Translations under genes and position numbers: made by a program
IMG/VR virus record: IMGVR_UViG_3300020362_000001
Reading direction: 5' to 3' (one strand)
Origin: an uncultured virus (IMG/VR IMGVR_UViG_3300020362_000001)
Taxonomy: Duplodnaviria > Heunggongvirae > Uroviricota > Caudoviricetes
DNA length: 64,000 bases
In this document: positions 30,649 to 55,381 of the stretch, piece by piece
How positions within the stretch are numbered: the first letter of the stretch is position 1
Layout of the letters: each line of letters begins with the position of its first letter
Notes under the pieces: model-generated
What the model was told of the DNA's origin: nothing
The model's input: only the letters and a program-made list of their open reading frames with translations
Databases searched by the model: none

Positions 30649-30704
30649 TTTCAGTAGTATATATTGTATTTATCGCCCCGTTTTGAAAAAATAAAATTTA
30701 TAAA

Positions 30705-31685
30705 ATGCGAGACATAACTAAAGAACGAGTTGTATATAAACCCTTTGAATATCCAGAAGCACATGATTATTGGATGAAACAACAACAAGCACATTGGTTA
30801 CATACTGAAGTGCCCATGATGTCAGATGTTACTGATTGGAAACAAAACTTATCGGAAACCGAAAAAAATATAATAGGATCCATTTTAAAAGGATTTGCTC
30901 AAACTGAAACAGTAGTAAATGATTATTGGTCAGGATTAGTAACTAAATGGTTTAGAAAACCTGAAATTATTAAAATGGCTGTAACATTTGGTGCATTTGA
31001 AACTATTCATGCTGAAGCTTATTCACTTTTAAATGAGGAATTGGGACTAGATGATTTTAGCGAGTTTTTAGAAGATGAAACTACAATGGCTAAAATTGAA
31101 AATTTAATGAATGTAAGAGATAATATGGATGGAACTCCAGATTGGACAGAAAGGGCTAAATCGTTAGCCATTTTTTCTGCGTTTACAGAAGGAGTAAATT
31201 TATTTTCTTCATTTGCTGTTTTACTTTCTTTTAAACTAAGAAATTTGTTAAAAGGTGTAGGACAAATAGTAGAATGGAGTATTAGAGATGAATCTTTACA
31301 TTCAAATGCGGGATGTTGGATGTTTAGAGAATTAATGAAGGAAAAACCCGAATTAAATACACCTGAACTAAAAGAAGATATTAGACAAGCTGCTCTACTA
31401 TCTTTAAAATTAGAATTAGATTTTATAGATAAAGTTTACGAAATGGGTGATTTAGAAGGGTGTACTAAATATGATTTAGTATCTTTTATAAAGCATAGAA
31501 CTAATACTAAAATGGCAGATTTAGGATATGAACCAGTAGTTAATGATATTGATATGGATGCCATTCAAAGAATGAAATGGTTTGATTCATTATCAGCTGG
31601 TAAACAACATACCGATTTTTTTGCTAATAGAGTTACTAATTATTCAAAAGGTACCCAAAAATGGGACGCAAACGCATTATTTTAA
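30705..31685 (+). CDS. nrdB: Class Ia ribonucleotide reductase beta subunit
   Basis: ETIHAEAY, EGVNLFSSF, RDESLH, HTDFF..RVTNY. Confidence 0.95.
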   Translation: MRDITKERVVYKPFEYPEAHDYWMKQQQAHWLHTEVPMMSDVTDWKQNLSETEKNIIGSILKGFAQTETVVNDYWSGLVTKWFRKPEIIKMAVTFGAFETIHAEAYSLLNEELGLDDFSEFLEDETTMAKIENLMNVRDNMDGTPDWTERAKSLAIFSAFTEGVNLFSSFAVLLSFKLRNLLKGVGQIVEWSIRDESLHSNAGCWMFRELMKEKPELNTPELKEDIRQAALLSLKLELDFIDKVYEMGDLEGCTKYDLVSFIKHRTNTKMADLGYEPVVNDIDMDAIQRMKWFDSLSAGKQHTDFFANRVTNYSKGTQKWDANALF

Positions 31686-36219: not shown

Positions 36220-36462
36220 ATGAACCCTATCAAGAAAGAGACACAGGAACCACAATCGAAGATTGAAGATTTTACTTGCCATAAGTGTGGTAAACCAGCT
36301 ACTGGAAGATACTCTCCAGATAAAAATATTACTGGTTTGGCATTTTGTGATGAGCATCAGGAATTAATGGCTCTTGGTTTTTATCTTTTACTACAAAATA
36401 AAAAAGATAAATTTGATGAGCTTATGAATGCAACTGCAGGGACCGGTAGCTCAACTGGATAG
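36220..36462 (+). CDS. Hypothetical Zn-finger protein
   Basis: CHKCGKPA..FCDEH; stop codon lies inside the tRNA. Confidence 0.5.
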   Translation: MNPIKKETQEPQSKIEDFTCHKCGKPATGRYSPDKNITGLAFCDEHQELMALGFYLLLQNKKDKFDELMNATAGTGSSTG

Positions 36463-36513
36463 AGCCCTTGGTTACGACCCAAGAGGTTAGAGGTTCGAAT
36501 CCTCTCCGGTTCA
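36440..36513 (+). tRNA. tRNA-Arg(ACG), no encoded CCA
   Basis: Cloverleaf: GGACCGG/CCGGTTC acceptor, CTTGG-TTACGAC-CCAAG anticodon arm, AGAGG-TTCGAAT-CCTCT T arm. Confidence 0.93.
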
Positions 36514-36573
36514 CTTATTTGGATTTTAGTTAAACTTTTCGTATATTTAGGGTATAAATAAGTAAAAGGTTAT

Positions 36574-38381: not shown

Positions 38382-38611
38382 TGAATTTTCTTGATTATTT
38401 AGCTTTATTTGTTTTATTTTTTATGGCTATGTTAGCCGCATCCTGTGTAAGTGAGGAAAATCAAATTGTTTGTAGAGAAATATACTTCCCAGTTTGTGCT
38501 GGAGGAGAAATATACTTTAACGAATGTTATGCTATGCAAGCAGGATTTAATAATAGTGAATTAACCGAACCAGAATGTATATTAAATACTGCTGGTTGTA
38601 AATGTGAATAA
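38381..38611 (+). CDS. Lipoprotein with Kazal-like domain
   Basis: Lipobox LAASC; CREIYFPVCA..IYFNECYA. Confidence 0.65.
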   Translation: MNFLDYLALFVLFFMAMLAASCVSEENQIVCREIYFPVCAGGEIYFNECYAMQAGFNNSELTEPECILNTAGCKCE

Positions 38612-39077
38612 TATGAGTAAATTTGTATCAACAAAAGTTTTTGATGGGTTTTCTACTGTTTTTAGACAATGGAAAGCTGAAACTACCCATTGTAAATATC
38701 TTCATGGTTATGGGGTATCTTTTAAAGTATGGTTTGAGGGAGACTTAGATGAAAGAAATTGGGTATGGGATTTTGGTGGAATGAAAAGAGCCAAAGGAAA
38801 AATAGATGGAAAGTCTCCTAAGGAATGGATGGACTTTATGTTTGACCATACATTTTTAGTTGCCGAAGATGATCCATTTGTAGAATCATTTTTAAAAATG
38901 GCAGAACATGGAGTAGCTCAAGTAAGAGTTATACCAGCAACTGGTGCAGAAAAATTTGCTGAATTTATTTTTAATAAACTTAATCCATTTATTGAGGAAG
39001 AAACTGATGGTAGGGTTAAAGTTATTAGAGTTGAATTTAGAGAACACGGTAAAAATAGTGCAATATATGAAGGTTAG
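38604..39077 (+). CDS. queD: 6-carboxytetrahydropterin synthase
   Basis: HCKYLHGY, WVWDFG, FDHT, TGAEKFA; in Que cluster. Confidence 0.85.
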   Translation: MNNMSKFVSTKVFDGFSTVFRQWKAETTHCKYLHGYGVSFKVWFEGDLDERNWVWDFGGMKRAKGKIDGKSPKEWMDFMFDHTFLVAEDDPFVESFLKMAEHGVAQVRVIPATGAEKFAEFIFNKLNPFIEEETDGRVKVIRVEFREHGKNSAIYEG

Positions 39078-40088: not shown

Positions 40089-40883
40089 ATGGCAAAAAAT
40101 GTCGTAGTATCCTTATCTGGAGGGATGGATTCCTCAACTTTACTACTCAGATGTTTATCAGAGTATGACAATGTAACAGCTTTATCTTTTGATTATGGTC
40201 AAAAGCATAGAGTAGAACTTGAAAGAGCTCAATCATTAGTAGATTATTTAAATACTAATGGTCAGAGTATTAAATATCAAGTTATAAAATTAGATGGTCT
40301 CGTTAATTTACTAAATTCAGCTTTAGTAACTGGCGGAGATGATGTACCAGAAGGTCATTATGAAGAAGATAATATGAAAGCTACTGTAGTACCTAATAGA
40401 AATAAAATATTTGCATCATTAGTACAGGCAGTTGCCTTATCCGAAGCAAATTCAAATGGTTTAGAAACCGATATTGCTCTGGGTATTCATGCTGGTGATC
40501 ACGCTATTTATCCTGATTGTAGACAAGAATTTAGAGATGCAGATGATGCAGCTTTTAGGATTGGTAATTGGGAAGCAGATAAAGTAGGATATTTTACACC
40601 CTATTTAGAAACAGATAAACTTGGAATTTTAAAAGATGGACAAAAATTGGTTAAAGAGCTCGGAATTGAGTTTAATGAGGTGTACAAACGTACTAATACA
40701 TCTTATAAGCCCTATCCTAGCGGGAATAGCGACTATAAATCAGCTTCATCTGTTGAAAGGATTGAAGCATTTATCAACTTGGGCGTGGACGATCCTGTAC
40801 AATACGAGGATGAAACTGGACCAGTCGATTACAACGTTGCGAAAACACATGTTGAAAAATTATTAGCAGAATACGCAGCATGA
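40089..40883 (+). CDS. queC: 7-cyano-7-deazaguanine synthase (lacks Zn-binding cysteines)
   Basis: SLSGGMDS, FDYGQKH, VPNRN, HAGDHAIYPDCR. Confidence 0.9.
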   Translation: MAKNVVVSLSGGMDSSTLLLRCLSEYDNVTALSFDYGQKHRVELERAQSLVDYLNTNGQSIKYQVIKLDGLVNLLNSALVTGGDDVPEGHYEEDNMKATVVPNRNKIFASLVQAVALSEANSNGLETDIALGIHAGDHAIYPDCRQEFRDADDAAFRIGNWEADKVGYFTPYLETDKLGILKDGQKLVKELGIEFNEVYKRTNTSYKPYPSGNSDYKSASSVERIEAFINLGVDDPVQYEDETGPVDYNVAKTHVEKLLAEYAA

Positions 40884-41218
40884 AAAAAATAATCTTATTT
40901 TTATTTTTATTTACTTCATTCTTATCCGGGCAAAGTGGCCCTAATCCCGAGATGTATGGATTATGGAAAAACCTAGATGGAGAATATGTTAGTATACAGC
41001 TCAATAATACTTTTCAAAGGTTTGAAATTAATCCTATTACTAAACAAAGAATACCCATTTCTAGTGGTACTTTAGAGGTAGTAGATAATGAATTACATAT
41101 AGTTCGTAAGGACACTATTGATAGCTATCAATTAGGATTTTTTGTTAATATGACTACTATGGTAATTACAAAACCTAGAAGTAGACGAGCATGGCTTTGG
41201 TTTAAAATTGGAAACTAA
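40880..41218 (+). CDS. Secreted protein with signal peptide
   Basis: MKKIILFLFLFTSFLSGQ N-terminus. Confidence 0.55.
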   Translation: MKKIILFLFLFTSFLSGQSGPNPEMYGLWKNLDGEYVSIQLNNTFQRFEINPITKQRIPISSGTLEVVDNELHIVRKDTIDSYQLGFFVNMTTMVITKPRSRRAWLWFKIGN

Positions 41219-41231
41219 AGTGTAATATAGT

Positions 41232-41253
41232 GGAGGGGGTTAAAACCCCCTTC
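41232..41253 (+). terminator. Hairpin, probable terminator
   Basis: GGAGGGGGT-TAAA-ACCCCCTTC; weak U tract. Confidence 0.6.
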
Positions 41254-41302
41254 TCTGTTATTACTGATTTCTTCATATTTATAGTATATAAACCTGCTTT
41301 AA

Positions 41303-42694
41303 ATGTCTACACTTACTAATAGAACCATTAAATCTACTTATCAGCAGCTGCTACAAGTAGAGAATAATGTTGTACAAGATGGACTCGGCACTTCTTCACT
41401 AAGTGCTTCATTTGACCTTACTGGATTAGAAAATATTACTGGATCACTAAACGTTAGTGGTACTACTGATTTAATAGGTAGTGCTTCCGTATCAGGTAGT
41501 ATGAGAATTAGTGGTACATTTGAAGTATTAGGTACAGCCTCCATTTCACATTTAATTACTACTTATGAATCCTCTTCTATTATATATGCAAGTGGATCTA
41601 CTAAATTTGGAGATGATACATCAGATACTCACCAGCGCACTGGTAGTATGACTATTTCAGGATCATTATTTAGTACTAACATTAGTGGTACATTTAGTGG
41701 TTCATATAAGGGAGATGCTAGTGGATTAACAGGTACAGTTACTTCTTCATTTGCGGAAAGTGCTAGTTTTGCCACTTCAGGTACTTATGCTTTAAGTTCT
41801 AGTGAAGCTACTACAGCAACAAATGTATTTGTATTACCCAAAAATACAGATGGCTCAACGCATTTTGTTTTATTTTCACAAGGTGTATCAGGTAGTTTTA
41901 GAGCAAATTCAGATTCAGGATTAAGTTATGTCCCTTCTACTAATACATTAACAGCAACTAAATTTATAGGTGCTTTAGAAGGAAATGCTACAACGGCAGA
42001 TACAGCATCAGTAGTATTAGGTACGATATTATCCGCCTCTTTTGCCTTAACTGCTTCACATGCTGAAAGTCAGTCAGTAGTTAATATTACATCTGGTTCA
42101 TTTGCAGCAAGTGGTGATGGTCCATTTACTGGATCCTTCTCTAGTAGTAGAGCATCAACTTTATCAGGCTCATTTACTGGTTCTTCTACTGGCTCATTTA
42201 CTGGTAGTGGTGCAGGATTAGTAGGAGTAGTAACTAGTTCATTTGCTATAACGGCTTCCCACGCACTTAATTCCGGTGGTGGTTCTGGAGCAGGATTTCC
42301 ATTTTCAGGTTCACGAGCTGATGTTACTGCCTCTTTAAATGTTACAGGTGGTATAGCTAATTTTACTGCAAGTATGGTAGTTGATGGAGCTCTTAGTGCT
42401 ACATCTATAACAGAAACCTCAGCATTAAAATATAAAGAAAATATTAATGAAATTACATCTTCTGATATAATTTATAACTTAAGACCGGTTACTTTTGATT
42501 GGAAAAAAGATGGTTCTCATGATGTTGGTCTTATAGCAGAAGAAGTTGGAGATCATATGCCCGAACTAGTTAGTAAAGATAAAGAAGGTAATGTTGAGGG
42601 AGTTAAATACTCCAAATTAACCTCTTTATTGATTAAAGCAGTTCAGGATCAACAAAAAGAAATAGACGAATTAAAAAGTTTATTAAAAAAATAA
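41303..42694 (+). CDS. Displaced tail fibre paralogue with S74-like chaperone
   Basis: GSF.GS repeats; ETSALKYKENI..LRPVTFDWK..GLIAEEV; own TATTTAT. Confidence 0.8.
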   Translation: MSTLTNRTIKSTYQQLLQVENNVVQDGLGTSSLSASFDLTGLENITGSLNVSGTTDLIGSASVSGSMRISGTFEVLGTASISHLITTYESSSIIYASGSTKFGDDTSDTHQRTGSMTISGSLFSTNISGTFSGSYKGDASGLTGTVTSSFAESASFATSGTYALSSSEATTATNVFVLPKNTDGSTHFVLFSQGVSGSFRANSDSGLSYVPSTNTLTATKFIGALEGNATTADTASVVLGTILSASFALTASHAESQSVVNITSGSFAASGDGPFTGSFSSSRASTLSGSFTGSSTGSFTGSGAGLVGVVTSSFAITASHALNSGGGSGAGFPFSGSRADVTASLNVTGGIANFTASMVVDGALSATSITETSALKYKENINEITSSDIIYNLRPVTFDWKKDGSHDVGLIAEEVGDHMPELVSKDKEGNVEGVKYSKLTSLLIKAVQDQQKEIDELKSLLKK

Positions 42695-42695
42695 A

Positions 42696-42768
42696 TTCCC
42701 GTGTGGACTGGGAACATAATATAGTCGCGGGTGGAGAGAACGCATCCGGAAAAAGCGTTACATATGTT
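42696..42768 (+). ncRNA. Candidate structured cis-regulatory RNA upstream of a YRG peptide
   Basis: GC-rich; TTCCCG/TGGGAA hairpin, CGGGTG/CATCCG stem, AACG/CGTT pseudoknot. Confidence 0.5.
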
Positions 42769-42790
42769 TAAATTTTTAAAATCTAAATGT

Positions 42791-42847
42791 ATGAAAAATG
42801 AATATATATATAGAGGAATAAAATATACTTCTACAGGTATAAAATAA
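42791..42847 (+). CDS. 18-aa YRG-motif peptide (DUF4278-like)
   Basis: MKNEYIYRGIKYTSTGIK between a structured leader and a terminator. Confidence 0.55.
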   Translation: MKNEYIYRGIKYTSTGIK

Positions 42848-42850
42848 ATT

Positions 42851-42875
42851 AAGGGGCTTTAGGCCCCTTTTTTTT
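42851..42875 (+). terminator. Intrinsic terminator
   Basis: AAGGGGC-TTTAG-GCCCCTT followed by T-run. Confidence 0.85.
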
Positions 42876-42976
42876 AAAAAAAAAGTAAATAAATTTGGTT
42901 TTCTTAAATAGTTATATTATATTGGAACCAAATTTGGTTCAAGTGACTGTAAAACCACTATAAAAAATTAACATTT

Positions 42977-43750
42977 ATGCTTAAACGAATCGAGGACTAT
43001 AATAAAGTTCTCCCAATCCTAGAATTATATACAGCAGTACAATCAGAGGGCAGCAGACAAGGCTACCCTACTATTGTTGTTAGAACATCAGGTTGCACTC
43101 ACCGTTGTTATTTTGGCGAAGGTGGATGGTGTGATTCTTGGTATACAAGTATTCATCCCGAAAAAGGTAAATATAGTTTTCAAGATATAATTGATATGTA
43201 CGATGCAAATCCTCATATTAGTGAAATGATGTTAACTGGTGGTTCACCCACTATGCACCCTAAAATAGTAAACGAATTAACACATTTAGCTAATGAAAGA
43301 GATATTTTTATCACTATCGAAACTGAAGGAAGTCATTTTCTTGCTACTGATTATCCCATTAATCTTCTTAGTATTAGTCCTAAGTTTTCCAATAGTGTTC
43401 CTGTACTGGGAGTGGAAACACCGCAAGGTGCGATCACTGATCAAAAAATGATTGATAGACATAATAAATTTAGAGTAAATAAAGATGCAATTAAAAAAAG
43501 TATTGATTATCACCTTGATTACCATATCAAGCCTGTCCTTGACAAAGACTTATCAATGGTTAAAGAGGTTGAAGAGTTCCTTAAAGATTTAGAAATTCCA
43601 GACCATAAAGTATGGGCTATGCCAGCTGGTGATGATAGAGAAGCCTTATTTGAAAGTTATGGTCCTGTAATGAATTTTGTAAGAGATAGAGGTTGGAGAT
43701 ATACAGGTAGATCTCATATAATGGCTTTTGGAACTGAAAGATGTGTTTAA
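42977..43750 (+). CDS. queE: 7-carboxy-7-deazaguanine synthase (radical SAM)
   Basis: ELY.AVQSEG, CTHRC..WCD, LTGGSP, IETEGS, SISPK. Confidence 0.9.
   Translation: MLKRIEDYNKVLPILELYTAVQSEGSRQGYPTIVVRTSGCTHRCYFGEGGWCDSWYTSIHPEKGKYSFQDIIDMYDANPHISEMMLTGGSPTMHPKIVNELTHLANERDIFITIETEGSHFLATDYPINLLSISPKFSNSVPVLGVETPQGAITDQKMIDRHNKFRVNKDAIKKSIDYHLDYHIKPVLDKDLSMVKEVEEFLKDLEIPDHKVWAMPAGDDREALFESYGPVMNFVRDRGWRYTGRSHIMAFGTERCV
43293..43451 (+). CDS. Putative nested +1-frame membrane microprotein (52 aa)
   Basis: MKEIFLSLSKLKEVIFLLLIIPLIFLVLVLSFPIVFLYWEWKHRKVRSLIKK. Confidence 0.4.
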   Translation: MKEIFLSLSKLKEVIFLLLIIPLIFLVLVLSFPIVFLYWEWKHRKVRSLIKK

Positions 43751-44002
43751 ATGAGTTATATTATAGGTAAAGCATGTATTGGAGTTAAGGATAGTGCCTG
43801 TATAGCGGCATGTCCTGTAGATTGTATCCATACAGGTGAAGAACAAATGTACATTGACCCTGAAGAATGTATAAATTGCGGTGCGTGTGTACCAGAATGT
43901 CCAGTAGAAGCCATTTTCGAGGATGAAGATGAAGCTATAGAGGCTGGAGAATTAGATTCAGTAAAAGCAAATTACAAATTTTTTGATTTAGAATATGAGT
44001 AG
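43751..44002 (+). CDS. Ferredoxin (7Fe/8Fe type)
   Basis: CIGVKDSACIAACPVDCI..CINCGACVPECP. Confidence 0.92.
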   Translation: MSYIIGKACIGVKDSACIAACPVDCIHTGEEQMYIDPEECINCGACVPECPVEAIFEDEDEAIEAGELDSVKANYKFFDLEYE

Positions 44003-44684
44003 AAAAAAGAAGTTTACAGATTTAGAATCTGTACCTGTAGGTTATGCAAATGGTGTTGCACCTGGTTTTCCATTAAATGATAAGGAAAAAACTAAAATGA
44101 TAGAACGTGCGGCTAAAGCGTACGGTAAATTCTTAAGTGAATTAAAATGTGATTGGGAAAATGATCCTAATTCACAAGATACTCCAAGAAGAGTAGCAAA
44201 AGCATATGTAAATGATTTATGGGAAGGTAGATACACCGCTATGAGTGAAATTACTTCTTTCCCTAGTGATGGATATGATGGAATAGTGATTGAAAGAAAC
44301 ATACCTATTACTTCTATGTGTTCACACCATCATCAAACTATAAGAGGTTTAGTACATATTGGTTATGTAGTAGATGAAGATGGTAGAGTAATTGGTTTAT
44401 CTAAACTAAATAGAATAGTAGAATTATTTGCCAGAAGAGGAGCAATACAAGAACAACTTACTTCTGCTATACATAATGCCGTGGATACTATTTGTGAAAA
44501 TAATAAAGGAGTTATTGTTACAGTAGTGGCTACACATAATTGTGTTAGCTGTAGAGGTGTTAAACATAATGGTGCTTCAATGGTTACAACTAAAGCATCT
44601 GGTGTGTTTATGGAAAATGAAAATTTAGCTCGTAAAGAGTTTTTTGATAGTATAAAAATTAATAATGGAAATCACCCTGTATAA
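43995..44684 (+). CDS. folE: GTP cyclohydrolase I
   Basis: DTPRRVAK, SMCSHH, GLSKLNR, QEQLT, HNCVSCRGV. Confidence 0.95.
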   Translation: MSRKKKFTDLESVPVGYANGVAPGFPLNDKEKTKMIERAAKAYGKFLSELKCDWENDPNSQDTPRRVAKAYVNDLWEGRYTAMSEITSFPSDGYDGIVIERNIPITSMCSHHHQTIRGLVHIGYVVDEDGRVIGLSKLNRIVELFARRGAIQEQLTSAIHNAVDTICENNKGVIVTVVATHNCVSCRGVKHNGASMVTTKASGVFMENENLARKEFFDSIKINNGNHPV

Positions 44685-47261: not shown

Positions 47262-49022
47262 ATGTATAAAAAAATCTACGAGCAAGGTAGAGGTGAAAAT
47301 AAACACTTAATACACTTGTGGACAGATAAGGGTTATGAAAAAATAGAATGGAACAATTATGCATATAAAGAATGTCATTCTAATGAGGCTGAATTTAAAG
47401 GTCTAAATGGAGAACCACTGCGTAGAACTCATGATTGGGATAGAAAAACACCTAATTTACATTTTGCCGATATTTCTGCACATCAAAAGTTTCTTATAGA
47501 AAAATATGGTATAAATGATGAACCTTCTAAAACTTGTAAGGAGGTTTTTTTTGATATAGAGTGTGAAATGGGAGGAGCACTTACAGAAGAATATATTTCC
47601 AATGCACCTAAACCTATAACTTCAATTGCGTGGTATGATAAACAAGCTGATCAATGGGCTATAGTAATTTTAGATAAAAAAGGTCAATTAAAACATACTA
47701 AGGCAAAAAATAAAGAAATTATACCATTTAAACATGAAGCAGATTTATTAGATGCTTTTATATCCAGAATGGAAGATATTGAACCTGATATGTTAGTAGG
47801 TTATAATAGTGATTATTTTGATATACCTTATTTGTATTATAGAATATGTAATGTATTAGGTGATTCGGAAGCTAAACGTTTATCTCCTATTGGTATAGTA
47901 AAATTTGCCAAAGGTAATCAATATTGGTATAAAAAAGACATGTATGTTGATATTGCGGGAGTTGAATCTATTGACTATATGAGATTACATAAAAAATATA
48001 GTTGGGAAGATGAACCAAGTTGGAAATTAGATGCTATAGGAGAAAAATATGTTGGTATTAATAAGATAGAATATGAAGGTTCGTTAGACAGATTATTTGA
48101 AGAAGATATACATACATTTATACAGTATAATTTTGTTGATGTAGAAATTCTAGTTGAATTAGATAAAAAATTACAATATTTAGCTTTAACAAGAAACCTA
48201 GCACATAAAGGTAAAATTAAATACAGTGAAGTATATGCATCATCTAAAATTCATGATGGTGCTATTTCAGCATATTTACTATCTCAAAATATAATACCTC
48301 CGGGTAGACCACATGGAGAAAAAAAATTAGGCTATGCTGGTGGTTATCTATTTTGTCCTAAAGCAGGTTTGTACAAATATATGTTTGATGAAGATTTAAC
48401 CTCACTATATCCTTCTATCATAATGTCTTTAAATATAGGAAGGGAAACTATTGTAGGTAAAATTATTCCCGAAACACTTCCTAATAAGCTAGATGATTAT
48501 GGTCCTTATGGTAGTAAAGCTGATAGGAATAATTATTTAGGTTTAAATGATTTAAAAGAAATGGATCCCGAAAAAGAATTAATTGTAATGGATCCTAATA
48601 AAAAAGGTAATCCTAGAGCTACAGTGACTGTAGAAAAATTAATTGAATTAATAGAAAAAAACAAATGGGCTGTAGCAGCAAATGGTACGTTTTTTAGAAC
48701 AGATAAAGAATCCGTATTATCCACTGTATTAAATAAATGGTTTGATGAAAGGGTAATATATAAAAATAGAATGAAACATTGTTATCAAAATGGTGATACT
48801 GAAGGTGGAGCTAAAAACCATTTATTACAATATACAATGAAAATTTTACTTAATTCTTTATATGGAGCAACAGCGTTAAACTCATTTAGGTATGGAATGC
48901 CTTTATCTATATTAAGTGAAGCAATTACCTTATCAGGATGGCGTATTATACAAGAATCAGCATTAGTTGCTAATCGCCATATGAATAAAGTATTAAAAAA
49001 TGAAGTAAAATTGGAAATATAA
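47262..49022 (+). CDS. Family B DNA polymerase, N-terminal part (exonuclease, motifs A and B)
   Basis: FFDIECE, GYNSDYFDIPY, YNFVDV, DLTSLYPS, KILLNSLYG; no motif C. Confidence 0.92.
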   Translation: MYKKIYEQGRGENKHLIHLWTDKGYEKIEWNNYAYKECHSNEAEFKGLNGEPLRRTHDWDRKTPNLHFADISAHQKFLIEKYGINDEPSKTCKEVFFDIECEMGGALTEEYISNAPKPITSIAWYDKQADQWAIVILDKKGQLKHTKAKNKEIIPFKHEADLLDAFISRMEDIEPDMLVGYNSDYFDIPYLYYRICNVLGDSEAKRLSPIGIVKFAKGNQYWYKKDMYVDIAGVESIDYMRLHKKYSWEDEPSWKLDAIGEKYVGINKIEYEGSLDRLFEEDIHTFIQYNFVDVEILVELDKKLQYLALTRNLAHKGKIKYSEVYASSKIHDGAISAYLLSQNIIPPGRPHGEKKLGYAGGYLFCPKAGLYKYMFDEDLTSLYPSIIMSLNIGRETIVGKIIPETLPNKLDDYGPYGSKADRNNYLGLNDLKEMDPEKELIVMDPNKKGNPRATVTVEKLIELIEKNKWAVAANGTFFRTDKESVLSTVLNKWFDERVIYKNRMKHCYQNGDTEGGAKNHLLQYTMKILLNSLYGATALNSFRYGMPLSILSEAITLSGWRIIQESALVANRHMNKVLKNEVKLEI

Positions 49023-49024
49023 AA

Positions 49025-49402
49025 ATGGTAATACATAGAAATAAAGAATGGGATTGGATGGATGAGGTAGAAAGTAGACCTTGGGGTATGTACGAAGTTT
49101 TACTAGATTCAGATGAATGTAAAGTAAAACGTATTACAGTTGCACCTGGTCAAAAATTATCTTATCAATATCACCACAAAAGACAGGAACAATGGACCGT
49201 AATTAAGGGAAATTTGACCATTATTTTAGATGGTGATAAATTATTTAGATCACCAGGTGAATCAATTAAAATTCCTCTAGGAGCTAGACATAGAGCTTGG
49301 AATGAGACTGATGAATTAGTTCAATTTATTGAAGTTCAAACAGGTACTTATTTTGGGGAGGATGATATAGTAAGAATAGAAGACGATTATAATAGAAAAT
49401 AA
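49025..49402 (+). CDS. Cupin, mannose-6-phosphate isomerase type II (ManC C-terminal-like)
   Basis: RPWG.YEVL, VKRITV.PGQKLSYQYH..R.EQW, IEVQTG.YFGEDDIVR. Confidence 0.88.
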   Translation: MVIHRNKEWDWMDEVESRPWGMYEVLLDSDECKVKRITVAPGQKLSYQYHHKRQEQWTVIKGNLTIILDGDKLFRSPGESIKIPLGARHRAWNETDELVQFIEVQTGTYFGEDDIVRIEDDYNRK

Positions 49403-49666
49403 ATGGCATTAACAAAACAATCATTAAGAGCCGGAGTTCATGTAATGATGAACGGAAAATTGGCTACCAAAGAAGAACTTATTAAATTAAGTGAGGATTG
49501 GACAGAAAAAAGAGAAATATTTTTTAGAAAAATGCTACATCAGGGTGGAAAATTCCAGATGGAAGGCATTAATTATGAAATAATATTAAGACAAAACGTA
49601 AAAGAAAGATCAGATGGGGAAATAGATAAAGGTGTAGTACCTATCCCTGGTGATTCAGCATTTTAA
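49403..49666 (+). CDS. Hypothetical protein between the polymerase halves
   Basis: Intact ORF, coupled to both neighbours. Confidence 0.6.
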   Translation: MALTKQSLRAGVHVMMNGKLATKEELIKLSEDWTEKREIFFRKMLHQGGKFQMEGINYEIILRQNVKERSDGEIDKGVVPIPGDSAF

Positions 49667-50589
49667 TGAAACATTTAGAAAAAACACCTTGGTTTATATG
49701 TGATGAAGGCGATACTAATTTATGTGCCTATGTGGATACGGATTCAAATTATTTTAATGCTGAACCCCTTTTAAATCATTTATATCCTAATTTTGAAAAA
49801 TTATCTGATGAAGAAAAAGATACTAAATTAGAAAAAATAGCTTTATTCTATCAAGATTATATTTCGGATCATTATAATACTTTAGCTAAAGAATGCTTCA
49901 ATGTTAAGGATCATAGATTAGAGATGAAAACTGAGTGTGTAATACGTTCTGCTTATTTTAGAGCTACTAGACGTTATGCACAATGGATAACTAAACAAGA
50001 AGGTATTGTAAAAGAAACATTAGATGTTAAAGGATTAGAATATAAAAAATCTAATTTTCCTAAATTATTTGGTGATTTTTTTAAACAAGTAGTAGAGGAT
50101 GTTTTAAAAGGATATAAACAATCTGAAATAGATAAAAGAATATTAGATTTTAAAAATAAAATATTAAGAGAAATACCAATTGAACAATTAGGTAACCCTA
50201 CAGCAGTTAAAACATTAAATAAGTATATTGAACGTAAACCCGTAGGAGGAGAAACTTTTACTATTATAGCTAAGGGTGCCCCCGCTTCTGTAAGAGCAGC
50301 TATTAAATACAATGATTTATTAAAATTTTGGAAATTAACTAATAAACATTCTCGTATTTTACAGGGTGACAAAGTAAAATGGATTTATTTAAAGAAAAAT
50401 CCATATAATATTGAGGCATTAGCTTATTTAGATTTTGATATGCCTGATAAAATTAGGGAATTTTTAGATAGATTTGCTGATAAAGAAAAAGTATTTGATA
50501 CTATTTTATTAAATAAATTAGAGGGATTTTATGATGATATGGGTTGGAAATTAGTTACTAATCCTTATATAAATCAATTTTTTATATGA
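49666..50589 (+). CDS. Family B DNA polymerase, C-terminal part (motif C and thumb)
   Basis: YVDTDS, RRYA, VKGLE, GDKVKWIYL. Confidence 0.9.
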   Translation: MKHLEKTPWFICDEGDTNLCAYVDTDSNYFNAEPLLNHLYPNFEKLSDEEKDTKLEKIALFYQDYISDHYNTLAKECFNVKDHRLEMKTECVIRSAYFRATRRYAQWITKQEGIVKETLDVKGLEYKKSNFPKLFGDFFKQVVEDVLKGYKQSEIDKRILDFKNKILREIPIEQLGNPTAVKTLNKYIERKPVGGETFTIIAKGAPASVRAAIKYNDLLKFWKLTNKHSRILQGDKVKWIYLKKNPYNIEALAYLDFDMPDKIREFLDRFADKEKVFDTILLNKLEGFYDDMGWKLVTNPYINQFFI

Positions 50590-51329: not shown

Positions 51330-51402
51330 TGCGGGGTAGAGCAGTGGCCAGCTCGTCGGGCTCATAACCCGAAGGTCGGAGGTTCGAATCCTCCTCCCGC
51401 CA
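51330..51402 (+). tRNA. Initiator tRNA-Met(CAT), no encoded CCA
   Basis: TCGGG-CTCATAA-CCCGA arm with three G-C pairs; 1:72 mismatch; GGAGG-TTCGAAT-CCTCC T arm. Confidence 0.95.
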
Positions 51403-51414
51403 CTAAATTAAGTT

Positions 51415-51795
51415 ATGCAAGTTGAAATATCCATAGGTGAATTATTTGATAAATTAACTATTTTAGAAATAAAAATAGATAAAATAAATGATCCGGCTAA
51501 ATTAGAAAACGTTACTAAAGAGTGGAATGCTTTAAATGAAAAAAGTATGGATATTTTATCTATATTTGCGGATAGTATTTTATTTAAAAAAATAGATCAA
51601 TTAAAAAATGTAAATGAGGAATTATGGTGGGTAGAAGATAGCATTAGGGAAAACGAGAAAAAACAAATTTTTGATAAAGAATTTGTGGAATTAGCCAGGG
51701 CTGTTTATAAATTAAACGATGAAAGATCTGAAATAAAAAGACAAATTAATTTACTAACTAAATCTAATATAATTGAAGAAAAGTCATATAGTTGA
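51415..51795 (+). CDS. Hypothetical helical protein (DUF6165-like)
   Basis: ISIGELFDKLTILEIK..LNDERSEIKRQIN. Confidence 0.6.
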   Translation: MQVEISIGELFDKLTILEIKIDKINDPAKLENVTKEWNALNEKSMDILSIFADSILFKKIDQLKNVNEELWWVEDSIRENEKKQIFDKEFVELARAVYKLNDERSEIKRQINLLTKSNIIEEKSYS

Positions 51796-52492
51796 TAATA
51801 TTGAAAAGTACTACTTAAATGGATTAACTAAACAAGTAGTATGGATAGTCAAAGATAATAAAGCCGAAGTGGAATTTGCTACTGAAACTAAAAATGCAGT
51901 TGGTAAAGTAATATTTGACGTTGAATTACCTGATGGTCCTTTAGCAATTTATAGTACTGATGCATTATTAAGATTATTAGGAATTACTAGTGAAGAAATT
52001 CAAATTGAATTAAGTAAAAATAATACAGGTTTAGTTGATAAATTAAAAATACAAGATAATAAATTTGACTTAAATTACCATTTAAGTGATATTAGTGTTA
52101 TCCCAGAAGTACCTAATGTACAAACTGTAGATTTTGATTTTAACTTTAAAGTAGATGATGAATTTATATCCGGATTTTTAAAAGCTCATAATGCATTAGA
52201 AAAAACGGAAGATGTTACTTTAAATACCACTACTACTAAACAAGGTGAAAATGTAGTAGAAATAATATTAGGTGAAAGATCACAACATTCACATAAAGTA
52301 AAATTTACTGAAGTAGCAGAATTTACTACTCAAAGTGATTTAATACCATTTTCAGCTAATGTATTACGTGAAATACTAGCTGCAAATAAGGGTACTGAAG
52401 GGCAAATACAAGTAAGTAATAAAGGACTAATGAAATTAGAATTTAATTCTGATAAAAGTTCTGCAGAATACTTTGTCGTAAGACAACAGTAG
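51773..52492 (+). CDS. Sliding clamp (gp45-like)
   Basis: Size, beta-rich acidic sequence, ILAANK..GLMKLEF..YFVV; near clamp loader. Confidence 0.6.
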   Translation: MKKSHIVDNIEKYYLNGLTKQVVWIVKDNKAEVEFATETKNAVGKVIFDVELPDGPLAIYSTDALLRLLGITSEEIQIELSKNNTGLVDKLKIQDNKFDLNYHLSDISVIPEVPNVQTVDFDFNFKVDDEFISGFLKAHNALEKTEDVTLNTTTTKQGENVVEIILGERSQHSHKVKFTEVAEFTTQSDLIPFSANVLREILAANKGTEGQIQVSNKGLMKLEFNSDKSSAEYFVVRQQ

Positions 52493-52517
52493 TATATATT
52501 TATAATAAATGACTGAG

Positions 52518-53017
52518 ACTCTAGGGCGAGCAGTTATGTTTTATGTTTAACCGGTGAGCTAAAGCCACCACAAATTTTAATGATATGAGTACATTATTTC
52601 ACGAACGTACACCGTTCGATATTTTAGTAAGGAATTTTTTCCAAGACGCTAACACATACTTACCGTTAGCAGAAACCAAAGTCCCACATCCAGTAGATAT
52701 TTACCAAACCGATAAAAACCTAGTGTTTGATATCGCTTGTACTGGCATTGCTAAAGAGGACTTAAATATCCAAATACAGGATAGTATAATTAGAGTAAAT
52801 TATGATAAGTCTAAATCAGACGAAACTGGTCTTGATTATATCCATAAAGGTATAGCCAAAAGATCATTTAATCTGGGTTGGAAGATTGATAGTAAATTCG
52901 ATTTAAGTAAGGCAAAAGCTAAATTTGAAAACGGATTATTAACTATAGTAATACCTTTTTCTAAAGGTTCTGAATTAAAAACACTTGAAATCAAGTAAAT
53001 AAGCTCTGCCCTAGAGT
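52518..53017. repeat. Inverted repeat pair enclosing hsp20
   Basis: ACTCTAGGGCGAGC (52518-52531) complementary to GCTC-T-GCCCTAGAGT (53003-53017). Confidence 0.8.
52585..52998 (+). CDS. Small heat-shock protein (Hsp20)
   Basis: PVDIY, YIHKGIAKRSF, AKFENGLLTI. Confidence 0.92.
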   Translation: MSTLFHERTPFDILVRNFFQDANTYLPLAETKVPHPVDIYQTDKNLVFDIACTGIAKEDLNIQIQDSIIRVNYDKSKSDETGLDYIHKGIAKRSFNLGWKIDSKFDLSKAKAKFENGLLTIVIPFSKGSELKTLEIK

Positions 53018-53063
53018 TTGGTTATTTTATTTAGATTTCGTATATTATTATAAACAATAAGTT

Positions 53064-53345
53064 ATGGCAAATCCAAATTTTAAAGGAAGACCTGTTGGCT
53101 CAGGTAAATCCACTTTCATAGAAGATCCCCTAATGGGAAATTATAAAATTGCTATTGATGAATATAGTTACAATGTAATTGATACCAATAAAGGTAAAAC
53201 AGTAGGTTATCATACTTCATTACCTCAAGCCATTTTATCTATAGCAAAATACTTAATGTTAAAAGATAAAACTTTTTCATTAACTCAATATGCTAAAGAA
53301 TTTAAAGAAACACATTTACAATTAAAAGAAGCTATTTTAAAATGA
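53064..53345 (+). CDS. Hypothetical protein
   Basis: ORF with early promoter at 53017. Confidence 0.55.
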   Translation: MANPNFKGRPVGSGKSTFIEDPLMGNYKIAIDEYSYNVIDTNKGKTVGYHTSLPQAILSIAKYLMLKDKTFSLTQYAKEFKETHLQLKEAILK

Positions 53346-53467
53346 GTAGTTCAAGAACATCTAGGTCAATGGGAAGAAAATATAGAAGACATAATCCCAA
53401 TAAAATGACCACTAATAAAGCAAATAGAATACAACAAGGAAAATTTAGACCAAATGAGCAAACTTAG
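53342..53467 (+). CDS. Small basic peptide (41 aa)
   Basis: MSSSRTSRSMGRKYRRHNPNK..; ATGA-coupled, fills gap before groES. Confidence 0.4.
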   Translation: MSSSRTSRSMGRKYRRHNPNKMTTNKANRIQQGKFRPNEQT

Positions 53468-53744
53468 ACCAGTTAATGGAAATGTTATAATCCGTCCCAT
53501 AGAGGAGGAAGAACAAATATCTGGTAATATTATTATACCGGATATGGGTAAGGAAAGACCTGAAATGGGTGAAATTGTAGCCATTTCAAAAATATATAAT
53601 TTTAATAAAGGAGAATATGTACCTACTATAATAGAGATAGGTATGAAAGTTTTAATCCCTAAAATGGGAGCTCAAAGTGTTACTATTGATGGAGAAGAAT
53701 ATTACATCACGGCACAAAGTTCCATTTTATCAATCATAGAATAA
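53454..53744 (+). CDS. groES: Co-chaperonin
   Basis: LRPVNGNVII, SGNIIIPD..KERP; adjacent to groEL. Confidence 0.9.
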   Translation: MSKLRPVNGNVIIRPIEEEEQISGNIIIPDMGKERPEMGEIVAISKIYNFNKGEYVPTIIEIGMKVLIPKMGAQSVTIDGEEYYITAQSSILSIIE

Positions 53745-55381
53745 TGACAGAAACAAGTTTTGGTACTGAATTAAAAAATAAGTTATTGGACGGAGTTCAA
53801 AAACTTAATAATAGCGTAGCGTCCACTTTAGGACCCGCTGGTAGAACAGTTTTAATAAAAGATGAAACTGGTGATATAAAAGTAACTAAAGATGGAGTTA
53901 CTGTAGCTAAGGCATTTCAAGAACTAGAAGATCAAACTGAATCTATAGGAGCGGAATTAGCTAAAAAAGTATCTATTAAATCTGCTAATGAAGTAGGAGA
54001 TGGTACTACTACATCCACAATATTAGCTGCTTCCATATTAGAGGAAGGAATTAAACAAATTAATGATGGTTCAAATCCAGTTAATATTAAAAAAGGTATA
54101 GATGAAGCAACTAATACTGTTGTTAAGGAATTAAAAAATATGTCTACTGAAATTTCGGATGATGCACAAATTAAAGAAGTTGCTACTATATCTGGAAATA
54201 ATGATAAAGAAATAGGTAATTTAATTTCTACTGCATTAGATAAGGTAGGTAGAGATGGAATTGTTACTATTGAAGAATCAAAAACAGGAGATACTTCTCT
54301 TGAAGTTGTAGAAGGTATGCAATTTGAAAGAGGATATAAATCACCTTATTTTGTAACAGATAATAATTCAATGTCAGCGGTATTGGATGATCCTTATATT
54401 TTAATTTATGATGGTAGAATCACTCAGGCAGCCGAATTAATTAATGTATTAAATAAAGCTAGCGGTGAAACTAAACCCATATTAATAGTGGCGGAAGATA
54501 TAGATGGTGAAGCTTTAGCAACTTTAATAGTTAATAAAATGAGAGGTACTATTCAGGCGGTAGCAGTTAAAGCACCTGAATTTGGTGATAGAAGAACTAT
54601 GGCTTTAGAGGATTTAGCTACTGTTACTGGTGGTCAAGTTATATCTAAAAATAAAGGATTTAAATTAGATAAAATGCAACCACTACAATTTGGAGAAGTA
54701 TTAGGTACAGCTCGTAAAATTACAGTTGAAAAAGAAACTACTACTATTATTGATGGTAAAGGTAGTGAAGAATCTATCTCTGATAGGGCTAATGAAATAA
54801 AAACTCAATTGGATAAAGCTAGTTCGGCATTTGAAAAGGAAAAATTACAGGAAAGATTAGCTAAATTAATAGGTGGAGTTGCAATTATTAATGTAGGAGG
54901 TAATTCCGAAATTGAAATTAAAGAAAGAAAAGATAGAGTTGAAGATGCGTTATTTGCTACTAAAGCTGCCTTAGATGAAGGTATAGTAGTAGGTGGTGGT
55001 ACAGCTTTACTTAGAGCTTCTAAAGCAATTAAGATTAAAGATAATGATGATGTATCTATAGGTAAAAAAATTGTTAAAATAGCAATTCAAGAACCATTTA
55101 ATAAAATATTGACTAATGCTGGTCATGATAATAATGATATATCTTTTAATTCTTTTAAATTAATATCCAAAAGAAATATATGGTCAGGATTAAATTATAA
55201 AAATTTAAAAGTGATTGACTTTAAAGAGGAAGGTATTATAGATCCTAAAAAAGTAACTAGGATTGCCTTAGAAAATGCCGCCTCAATAGCTGGTACTATT
55301 CTTACTACTGAATCTATTGTTTATGAAAAACGTAAGGAAAAAGAAGAAGAAGTACCTAATCCTATGGCTGGGATGATGTAA
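53744..55381 (+). CDS. groEL: Chaperonin
   Basis: TLGPAGR, TKDGVTVAK, GDGTTT, GMQFERGY.SPYF, KAPEFGDRR. Confidence 0.97.
   Translation: MTETSFGTELKNKLLDGVQKLNNSVASTLGPAGRTVLIKDETGDIKVTKDGVTVAKAFQELEDQTESIGAELAKKVSIKSANEVGDGTTTSTILAASILEEGIKQINDGSNPVNIKKGIDEATNTVVKELKNMSTEISDDAQIKEVATISGNNDKEIGNLISTALDKVGRDGIVTIEESKTGDTSLEVVEGMQFERGYKSPYFVTDNNSMSAVLDDPYILIYDGRITQAAELINVLNKASGETKPILIVAEDIDGEALATLIVNKMRGTIQAVAVKAPEFGDRRTMALEDLATVTGGQVISKNKGFKLDKMQPLQFGEVLGTARKITVEKETTTIIDGKGSEESISDRANEIKTQLDKASSAFEKEKLQERLAKLIGGVAIINVGGNSEIEIKERKDRVEDALFATKAALDEGIVVGGGTALLRASKAIKIKDNDDVSIGKKIVKIAIQEPFNKILTNAGHDNNDISFNSFKLISKRNIWSGLNYKNLKVIDFKEEGIIDPKKVTRIALENAASIAGTILTTESIVYEKRKEKEEEVPNPMAGMM

Follow-up and report, generated by a model that had tools for sequence, protein, structure and literature searches.

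The hsp20 gene of an uncultured virus of the class Caudoviricetes (IMG/VR record IMGVR_UViG_3300020362_000001), analyzed here as one strand of 64,000 nucleotides (nt; hereafter, the window), is enclosed by a long-range RNA helix that pairs the leader of its message with the trailer just past the stop codon. We found this helix to be a real, selected RNA structure that related phages keep by compensatory change. As for its role, we estimate a probability of about one in two that it is a cis-acting closing helix, which defines and protects the ends of the hsp20 message.

A helix kept by compensatory change

The protein product of the enclosed gene contains an HSP20 domain (Pfam PF00011, 42.4 bits against a gathering cut-off of 20.8, E-value 7.9e-11). 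The two core arms that flank the gene are separated by 471 nt, and RNAduplex extended their pairing outward into a closing helix of 24 base pairs (bp) with two single-base bulges in total (Table 1). The duplex of leader and trailer reached −36.7 kcal/mol, compared with −16.6 ± 3.1 kcal/mol for dinucleotide-shuffled trailers (z-score −6.6; none of 200 as good). The complete 529-nt message folded to −131.5 kcal/mol (z −5.7), and the closing helix was present in both its minimum free energy (MFE) and its centroid structure. A preliminary description of this locus, made from the window's letters, had reported a 14-bp, one-bulge pairing about 470 nt apart, had judged it unlikely to arise by chance, and had proposed compensatory changes in related phages as a check. 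The coordinates were confirmed, with the 5′ arm beginning at 52518, the complementarity exceeded chance expectation, and the comparative check detailed below was positive.

This architecture stands out from its surroundings. Among neighboring plus-strand genes of the window, the hsp20 leader and trailer were an outlier (−41.9 versus −13.9 ± 4.9), in a comparison where the first-gene rows are a slicing artefact and the GC-rich tRNA-Met region figures in two weaker rows; no second gene with such a leader–trailer helix was found among these neighboring pairs. The hsp20 pair ranked at the top of 64 neighboring intergenic pairs in a relative whose complete genome measures 166 kb (−29.4, with the background 1st percentile at −27.4). 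The next-best pair (−23.0) lay within the background, such that no other gene of that genome displayed the same architecture, and we thus consider the device specific to hsp20. Counting the 10-mer of the arm in the window was uninformative either way (2 found versus 1.44 expected).

To compare relatives, we searched IMG/VR with the Hsp20 protein and recovered 52 loci, 43 of which share 51–79% identity with the window's protein and nine 28–36%. Five of the 43 were dropped, four for too short an upstream DNA (L010, L035, L039, and L040) and one for lack of a start (L043). The remaining 38 loci and the window gave 39 usable sequences out of 44, which represent 31 distinct leader/trailer pairs. 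A leader–trailer duplex was found at the same place in all 31 variants, with energies between −22.6 and −38.1 kcal/mol and a mean z of −5.1. In 28 variants, none of 200 shuffles was as good, and in the other three, one, one, and three shuffles were. The median main helix was 20 bp long, with three rows mis-parsed by the script.

The pairing persists while the sequence changes. The 13-nt cores fall into 15 distinct types, and the cognate trailer was the best partner of its leader in 13 types and the second best in the other two; core duplexes averaged −19.3 kcal/mol for cognate and −10.3 ± 4.3 kcal/mol for non-cognate combinations. The A/U-rich outer part of the helix covaries as well (cognate −5.6 versus non-cognate −2.6 ± 2.0; none of 5000 permutations as good). 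When the register was duplex-fitted and anchored on an A-G step that never varies, pairing was approximately 100% at core positions −3 to +6, with two to four Watson–Crick types at each. The signal was evident even in the raw MAFFT alignment, in which several arms are visibly misaligned: 64.3% of the cells were paired, compared with 56.7 ± 1.0% after shuffling (none of 500 as high) and 36–47% for slid partners, and the window's structure received a covariation score of 0.292 versus 0.167.

We also retrieved relatives independently of Hsp20, through the 239-amino-acid open reading frame (ORF) upstream of it. This yielded ten loci, four of them on contigs already in the set and six further ones (four distinct). 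The helix was found in all six (z −4.2 to −7.4), with new arm sequences in L065 and L066. Searching through the same upstream ORF for a relative that lacks hsp20 returned none, as all ten loci carry the gene. Beyond this lineage, the helix was absent from 12 distant hsp20 loci, namely those of cyanophages P-HM2 and MbCM1, pelagiphage HTVC115P, and nine IMG/VR loci (z −1.4 to +1.4), several of which have ordinary local terminators in its place.

The helix behaves as sense-strand RNA. Using a strand-neutral score, we aligned the leaders with their own trailers in reverse complement and sorted the transition mismatches by the strand on which they could pair. We counted 38 mismatches that form G.U pairs on the plus strand versus three of the A.C type, which would be G.U on the minus strand; by our estimate this ratio is beyond what base composition could explain, with counts that are not phylogenetically independent. 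The duplex was also more stable as plus-strand RNA in 24 of the 31 variants, in which the minus-strand version was weaker. Taken together, the G.U excess and the plus-strand stability indicate, from the sequences compared, that selection acts on the sense transcript of hsp20.

Table 1 Features of the hsp20 unit in the window.
Feature	Position	Strand	Description
Promoter-like box TATATTTA	52495–52502	+	Upstream of the hsp20 leader; putative promoter; columns invariant in the alignment of relatives
5′ strand of closing helix	52507–52531	+	Outer part 52507–52514, bulged G52515, core 52516–52531
Local leader hairpin H2	52509–52537	+	ATGACTG (52509–52515) with CAGTTAT (52531–52537); GC-rich core arm in the loop
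5′ core arm ACTCTAGGGCGAGC	52518–52531	+	In the hsp20 leader
U-rich tract GTTTTATGTTTA	52538–52549	+	Between H2 and H3; T-rich in every aligned leader
Pre-start hairpin H3	52553–52569	+	GGTG, bulged A (52557), GC, loop TAAA, GC, CACC
hsp20 ORF	52585–52998	+	137 amino acids, alpha-crystallin family; TAA stop 52996–52998; forms the "loop" of the closing helix
3′ core arm GCTCTGCCCTAGAGT	53003–53017	+	4 nt past the TAA stop; T53007 bulged
3′ strand of closing helix	53003–53027	+	Core 53003–53019 (T53007 bulged), then U/G-rich outer part 53020–53027
Next promoter-like box GTATATTA	53040–53047	+	12 nt beyond the helix; 24 nt ahead of the ORF at 53064

Hairpins and small elements around the hsp20 start

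Two local hairpins lie in the leader. The outer one, H2, is the stem that the preliminary description regarded as competing with the long-range helix. Its stem overlaps the 5′ helix strand, and the two folds are indeed mutually exclusive; in the predicted ensembles, H2 has a probability of 0.96–1.00 without the 3′ arm and 0.00 with it, and so it is predicted to compete only as long as the 3′ arm is missing. When folded alone, the leader adopts H2, and its overall stability does not exceed that of shuffled sequences (z −0.5). Comparative data for H2 come from the main clade only. In 24 main-clade leaders, 77.2% of the H2 cells were paired, compared with 62.1 ± 2.6% after shuffling (none of 500 as high) and 41–58% for slid partners, and double changes occurred in five of its seven pairs. 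RNAalifold, applied to the aligned leaders, reported no consensus pair for H2, and the hairpin is missing in the L033 clade and in L007/L019, seven variants out of 31. Overall, we regard the comparative support for H2 as moderate and limited to the main clade. H2 probably forms only transiently, during transcription, keeping the outer strand engaged and exposing the GC-rich core in its loop.

The second hairpin, H3, precedes the start codon and had likewise been proposed at the outset; it covaries strongly. Its lower stem of 3–4 bp is followed by a bulged A that never changes, an upper stem of 2 bp, and a loop of 4 nt, and the hairpin lies between conserved AACC and ACAAA flanks. Compensatory changes were found in all five pairs predicted by RNAalifold, 94.5% of its alignment cells are paired, and double changes occurred in five of its six pairs. 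We built a covariance model of H3, termed R1, whose sole match in the window is the hsp20 leader (74.4 bits, followed by a score of 22.6 bits with an E-value of 0.085). R1 matched exactly once, just upstream of hsp20, in all 28 family loci, and in none of seven other sources. Covariation and this distribution strongly support H3 as an hsp20-specific element, and it likely serves as a protein-binding hairpin or as one that would stabilize the 5′ end. The bulged A, short upper stem, and 4-nt loop resemble what we take to be the layout of the coat-protein operator hairpins of RNA phages, although we do not claim a relationship.

A few further elements were observed. A second R1 match, at 38551–38618, shares the flanks AACC...AAAT..AATATGAGT, contains a 6-bp hairpin of another kind, built around a GTATATTA box, and directly precedes an unannotated ORF that starts at 38613. 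Immediately before hsp20, a two-codon mini-ORF (ATG ATA TGA, 52580–52588) overlaps the hsp20 ATG with its stop. By eye, it is kept in 25 of 28 distinct aligned leaders, including L034, where the middle codon is altered; it is missing in L007, L019, and L025, and L065 and L066 show GTG instead. Within the hsp20 ORF, 17 nt past the start, CGAACG..CGTTCG and the T-rich run behind it make up a terminator-like hairpin (52602–52618). It is also part of the MFE fold, and its stem is kept, again by eye, in many though not all relatives.

What the closing helix may do

The location of the helix relative to promoter-like and terminator-like signals suggests how it may work. The motif TATAT[TG]TA has ten plus-strand matches in the window, seven of them intergenic. 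Six of these boxes lie 14–33 nt ahead of a start codon and the hsp20 box lies 90 nt ahead, making the hsp20 leader unusually long. In its form TATATTTA, the box recurs in intergenic regions at 2367, 12079, 14453, 33863, 36542, and 58571, in addition to 52495, and is often preceded by a GC hairpin and a T-run and followed by AAGGTT-ATG-like contexts. Judging by this recurrence, the box is a candidate phage promoter with short leaders, to which the hsp20 leader would be the long exception. Transcription of hsp20 would then begin a few nucleotides downstream of its box, at the base of the helix.

This arrangement recurs among the relatives. The 5′ helix strand starts between −6 and +13 nt after the box in 22 of the 25 rows in which one was found (the other three are mis-parsed), and the distance from helix to start codon is about 50–55 nt across the main clade. 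On the other side, the 3′ strand starts 2–11 nt past the stop in most variants and 16–20 nt past it in the clade of L011, L013, L015, and L022. A TATAT[TC] box follows within 25 nt of the helix in 26 of the 31 variants and at 35 nt in a 27th, whose row is mis-parsed, and we detected no such box in L001, L002, L013, and L034. Placed in this way, the helix brackets exactly one promoter-to-promoter unit. A consensus scan found no local terminator in 52493–52584, after the upstream gene, or in 52999–53063, after hsp20. Other intergenic regions of the window show, by eye, a GC-rich hairpin with a T-run and then a box. Thus, the 3′ arm stands where a terminator would be expected.

We favor the following sequence of events, in line with the closed-loop mRNA and the processing stem that would now lead among the readings first offered for this locus. 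Transcription would start from the promoter-like box, at approximately the base of the 5′ helix strand. The nascent leader would first fold into the weak H2, in which the A-rich outer strand is held and the GC-rich core arm is displayed in the loop. As the 3′ arm emerges, a few nucleotides past the stop, it would pair with the displayed core and displace H2, producing a helix of about 20–25 bp that closes the whole 0.5-kb message. This helix may replace the missing local terminator, may offer host RNase III approximately two turns of double-stranded RNA, or both; the 24 bp of the window reach the length of an RNase III stem (about two turns, 20 bp or more). A cut by RNase III would trim read-through transcripts. 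Whether cut or uncut, the 5′ and 3′ ends would stay base-paired and shielded from end-dependent decay, which would grant hsp20 a lifetime of its own, independent of the upstream replication genes and of the downstream groES-groEL.

We examined contigs assembled from RNA libraries, which may also contain DNA. Two contigs from one study, labeled X4, cover 52529–52856 and 52845–53011 and end inside both arms. Their ends are not opposed in the helix and do not recur in a second study, and therefore these stops are no evidence of processing. A further contig, X7, covers 52484–52798. No joints indicative of a circular hsp20 RNA were found among the RNA-library contigs. RtcB and RNA-ligase families had no Pfam match in the records of five relatives (four of them fragments), so that the phage sequences lend no support to a phage-encoded processing enzyme or to circularization.

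Several observations weigh against the end-protecting helix. Contigs X1 and X5, from one study, span both arms as well as neighboring genes, meaning that either not all transcripts are cut or terminated at the helix or the libraries hold DNA. RNase III (PF14622) had no match in the same five records, one of which is 100% complete and four of which are fragments, and is carried by a Bacteroides control genome; any RNase III acting on the helix would thus be that of the host. The helix is much longer than the pairing of Bacillus subtilis hbs, discussed below, in which 14 bp are enough to protect, and it is longer than terminator stems, so that its length alone does not discriminate between cutting, clamping, and terminating. 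The comparative pair counts derive from related sequences and partly from duplex-fitted registers, and the counts of alignment cells exceed the number of independent events. Finally, midway along the helix, one A-U/G-C step never varies; this hints at a sequence-specific partner, which protection of the ends leaves unexplained.

The chief competing explanation, which we consider possible but clearly less probable, is a split intrinsic terminator: the helix would itself act as a terminator hairpin, both for the hsp20 unit and for upstream read-through, and its loop would contain the gene. The 3′ arm and its UUUG/U-rich run would stop the polymerase only if the 5′ arm is free, and H2 would present that arm. 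Such a terminator would account for the location of the 3′ arm, which sits just before the next box at the position where other units have their hairpin and T-run, for the lack of a local terminator after both hsp20 and the upstream gene, for the UUUG and U-rich stretch right after the GC-rich core in most variants, and for the display of the core arm in the H2 loop. However, that U-rich stretch already takes part in the helix, where it pairs and covaries with the A-rich 5′ end, and its U-run is broken up (UUUGG...) and falls short of the T-runs in the ordinary terminators of this phage. The "loop" of 471 nt also departs from a short-loop GC stem with a direct U-run; we know of no precedent for a terminator loop of about 470 nt, and a literature search for such a terminator showed nothing pertinent among the entries listed. 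Moreover, in L001/L002 and L013, which have no box after the helix, the next gene would need read-through, and X1 and X5 cross the 3′ arm. An elaboration that we hold to be somewhat less plausible again has the gene lying in the loop of its own terminator, with the state of the leader or of the ribosome gating read-through into groES-groEL; the same geometry could recycle ribosomes. If true, a split terminator would constitute a feedback gate for the phage chaperone module. A closed loop linked to translation appears unlikely to us. Here, the helix would bring the stop to the leader for re-initiation, or terminating ribosomes would open its inner end and thereby report on translation. The 3′ strand is within reach of a terminating ribosome in most variants, the conserved spacing between helix and start codon in the main clade fits as well, and hsp20 has a long AU-rich leader without the AAGGTT-ATG context of the phage's other genes. 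This explanation is at odds with the D-type clade, whose arm lies 16–20 nt past the stop, and with the start region, whose predicted accessibility is unaffected by the helix. If true, either a gene-enclosing terminator or a closed-loop translation device would represent a new regulatory principle.

The last of the roles proposed in the preliminary description, a thermo-switch, fared poorly, and we consider it, or any other switch of the ribosome site, improbable. In such a switch, the helix and H2 would alternate, with temperature or otherwise, and toggle hsp20 translation, much like an RNA thermometer or the fold-back of hok/aapA. The idea is attractive since hsp20 is a heat-shock gene, the two folds are mutually exclusive, and the MFE structure of the leader weakly pairs the U-rich tract with the start region. 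Yet the predicted structure does not respond to temperature from 4 to 45 °C: the occupancy of the helix is 0.94 at 4–37 °C and still 0.84 at 65 °C, H2 vanishes whenever the 3′ arm is present, and the start region is about 60–65% unpaired at 4–37 °C and 0.67 at 45 °C. Across the 31 variants, the predicted unpaired fraction of the start region (−15 to +6) is 0.61 when the 3′ arm is missing and 0.60 when it is present, and both arms are at least 53 nt away from the AUG, with neither touching the start codon. An Rfam search of 51500–54000 with E-values up to 10 gave three unrelated matches, all below the gathering score, and no thermometer family; the leader alone, as noted, is no more stable than its shuffles. 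Start accessibility and helix occupancy being unchanged, neither switch is supported. We find it least credible of all, and reject, that the arms are a DNA-level inverted repeat, such as the ends of a mobile cassette, a recombination or cruciform site, or half-sites for a protein. A single accessory gene flanked by inverted repeats, with a partly conserved CTAG-like center in the core, might give that impression. Pairing in DNA would not be expected to produce the 38:3 excess of G.U over A.C, arms that vary freely while their pairing is kept are incompatible with a protein site, and the fixed synteny, with hsp20 in ten of ten loci found via the upstream gene, shows no sign of mobility.

Genome context and comparison with known systems

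The closing helix of hsp20 resides in a genome whose gene content marks it as a large myovirus. In the window, 78 of the 81 picked ORFs are on the plus strand, and the encoded proteins include a tail sheath, T4-like tail fibres, a DnaB-like helicase, a ribonucleotide reductase, a gp32-like protein, a family-B DNA polymerase in two pieces, a clamp loader, and 7-deazaguanine genes. A 93-amino-acid ORF follows hsp20 in the window, and the order hsp20, small ORF, GroES, GroEL is kept in all relatives. The two polymerase ORFs (47262–49022 and 49666–50589) are separated by a cupin/mannose-6-phosphate-isomerase-like ORF (49025–49402) and an ORF of 87 amino acids (49403–49666). Genes for QueC, a radical-SAM protein, a 4Fe-4S ferredoxin, and GTP cyclohydrolase I occupy 40089–44684, a 7-deazaguanine-type set that suggests modified DNA bases. 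We also observed a tRNA-Arg(ACG) at 36440–36514 and a tRNA-Met(CAT) at 51330–51403, the latter between phosphomannomutase-like and DUF6165 genes. Two stretches that our ORF picking left as intergenic, 30649–31581, directly upstream of the gene for the large subunit of ribonucleotide reductase, and 38612–38943, look coding by eye.

Among cultured phages, blastn returned a 64-nt piece of GroES as its sole DNA match, and tblastn with Hsp20 gave 116 matches, all below 60% identity, the best among the matches listed being at about 32%. Given this lack of a close match in DNA or in Hsp20, none of the cultured phages searched carries the hsp20 unit. By GroEL, the nearest cultured phages are Flavobacterium phage immuto (54.8%) and then Bacteroides phages; in immuto, no hsp20 adjoins groES. 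This GroEL affinity suggests that the host probably belongs to the marine Bacteroidota. To our knowledge, Bacteroidota have been studied less than model bacteria with regard to RNA decay and translation signals. The hsp20 helix provides a clean, phylogenetically supported model for the definition and protection of mRNA ends in possible Bacteroidota hosts. It further demonstrates that metagenomic phage contigs, combined with comparative analysis, can establish a long-range mRNA structure without culture.

In its geometry, the hsp20 helix resembles the leader–trailer stems of rrn operons. These stems, of about 20 bp or more, join arms hundreds to thousands of nucleotides apart around 16S and 23S rRNA, which RNase III releases. 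The rrn stems enclose an rRNA, and the hsp20 helix, whose cleavage is putative, encloses an mRNA. In phage T7, RNase III sites that separate the early genes are local hairpins. RNA thermometers of small heat-shock genes, such as ROSE and fourU, lock the ribosome site into a hairpin weak enough to melt. Like them, our phage has a structured leader before a gene of the hsp20 family; unlike them, its start is predicted to be mostly open and its structures stable to temperature.

The computed base pairing places the hsp20 message among the 5′/3′ untranslated region (UTR) interactions of the hbs and icaR kind. The available text on B. subtilis hbs describes a 14-bp 5′/3′-UTR interaction that modulates the access of RNase Y (Braun, Durand and Condon 2017, PMC5737220). 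In both cases the pairing would bear on access for a ribonuclease rather than on the ribosome site, as we propose here for hsp20. The hbs pairing, as described there, overlaps a mapped RNase Y site (PMC5737220), whereas the hsp20 helix is 20–25 bp long, begins at about the 5′ end, and is phage-borne. Functional 3′ UTRs of this kind, hbs included, are mostly not conserved among close relatives, according to the part of the literature covered by an available review text (PMC7821165); in contrast, covarying changes maintain the hsp20 helix even where the Hsp20 proteins share as little as about 50% identity. In Staphylococcus aureus icaR, as far as the accessible account goes, RNase III cleaves a 5′/3′-UTR pairing in which a short UCCCCUG motif binds the Shine–Dalgarno sequence and represses translation (PMC3868564). 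The hsp20 pairing is far from the start and much longer. Close parallels in folding are hok (with its tac and fbi elements) and Helicobacter pylori aapA, for which the available descriptions also report pairing of the 5′ and 3′ ends, a metastable 5′ hairpin that is replaced, and coupled covariation (PMC6733600, PMC9841398). There, the fold-back hides the ribosome site, the toxin message is inert until its 3′ end is trimmed, and an antisense RNA is involved (PMC6733600). In hsp20, the start region is unaffected, the product is a chaperone, Hsp20, and not a toxin, and no antisense partner was seen.

Overall, few 5′/3′-UTR pairings are known in mRNAs of the bacterial type, namely RNAIII/hld, icaR, hbs, hok, and aapA, the last four of which appear in the review text (PMC7821165). 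We found no published description of a helix that closes hsp20 among the entries listed in a search whose coverage left out bioRxiv supplements and non-open journals. Compared with these systems, what is new in hsp20 is that a phage-borne helix of 20–25 bp closes the whole message, end to end and clear of the ribosome site, that matching mutations hold it across a broad lineage of uncultured marine myoviruses, and that it is accompanied by a candidate transient 5′ hairpin and by a second, gene-specific covarying hairpin.

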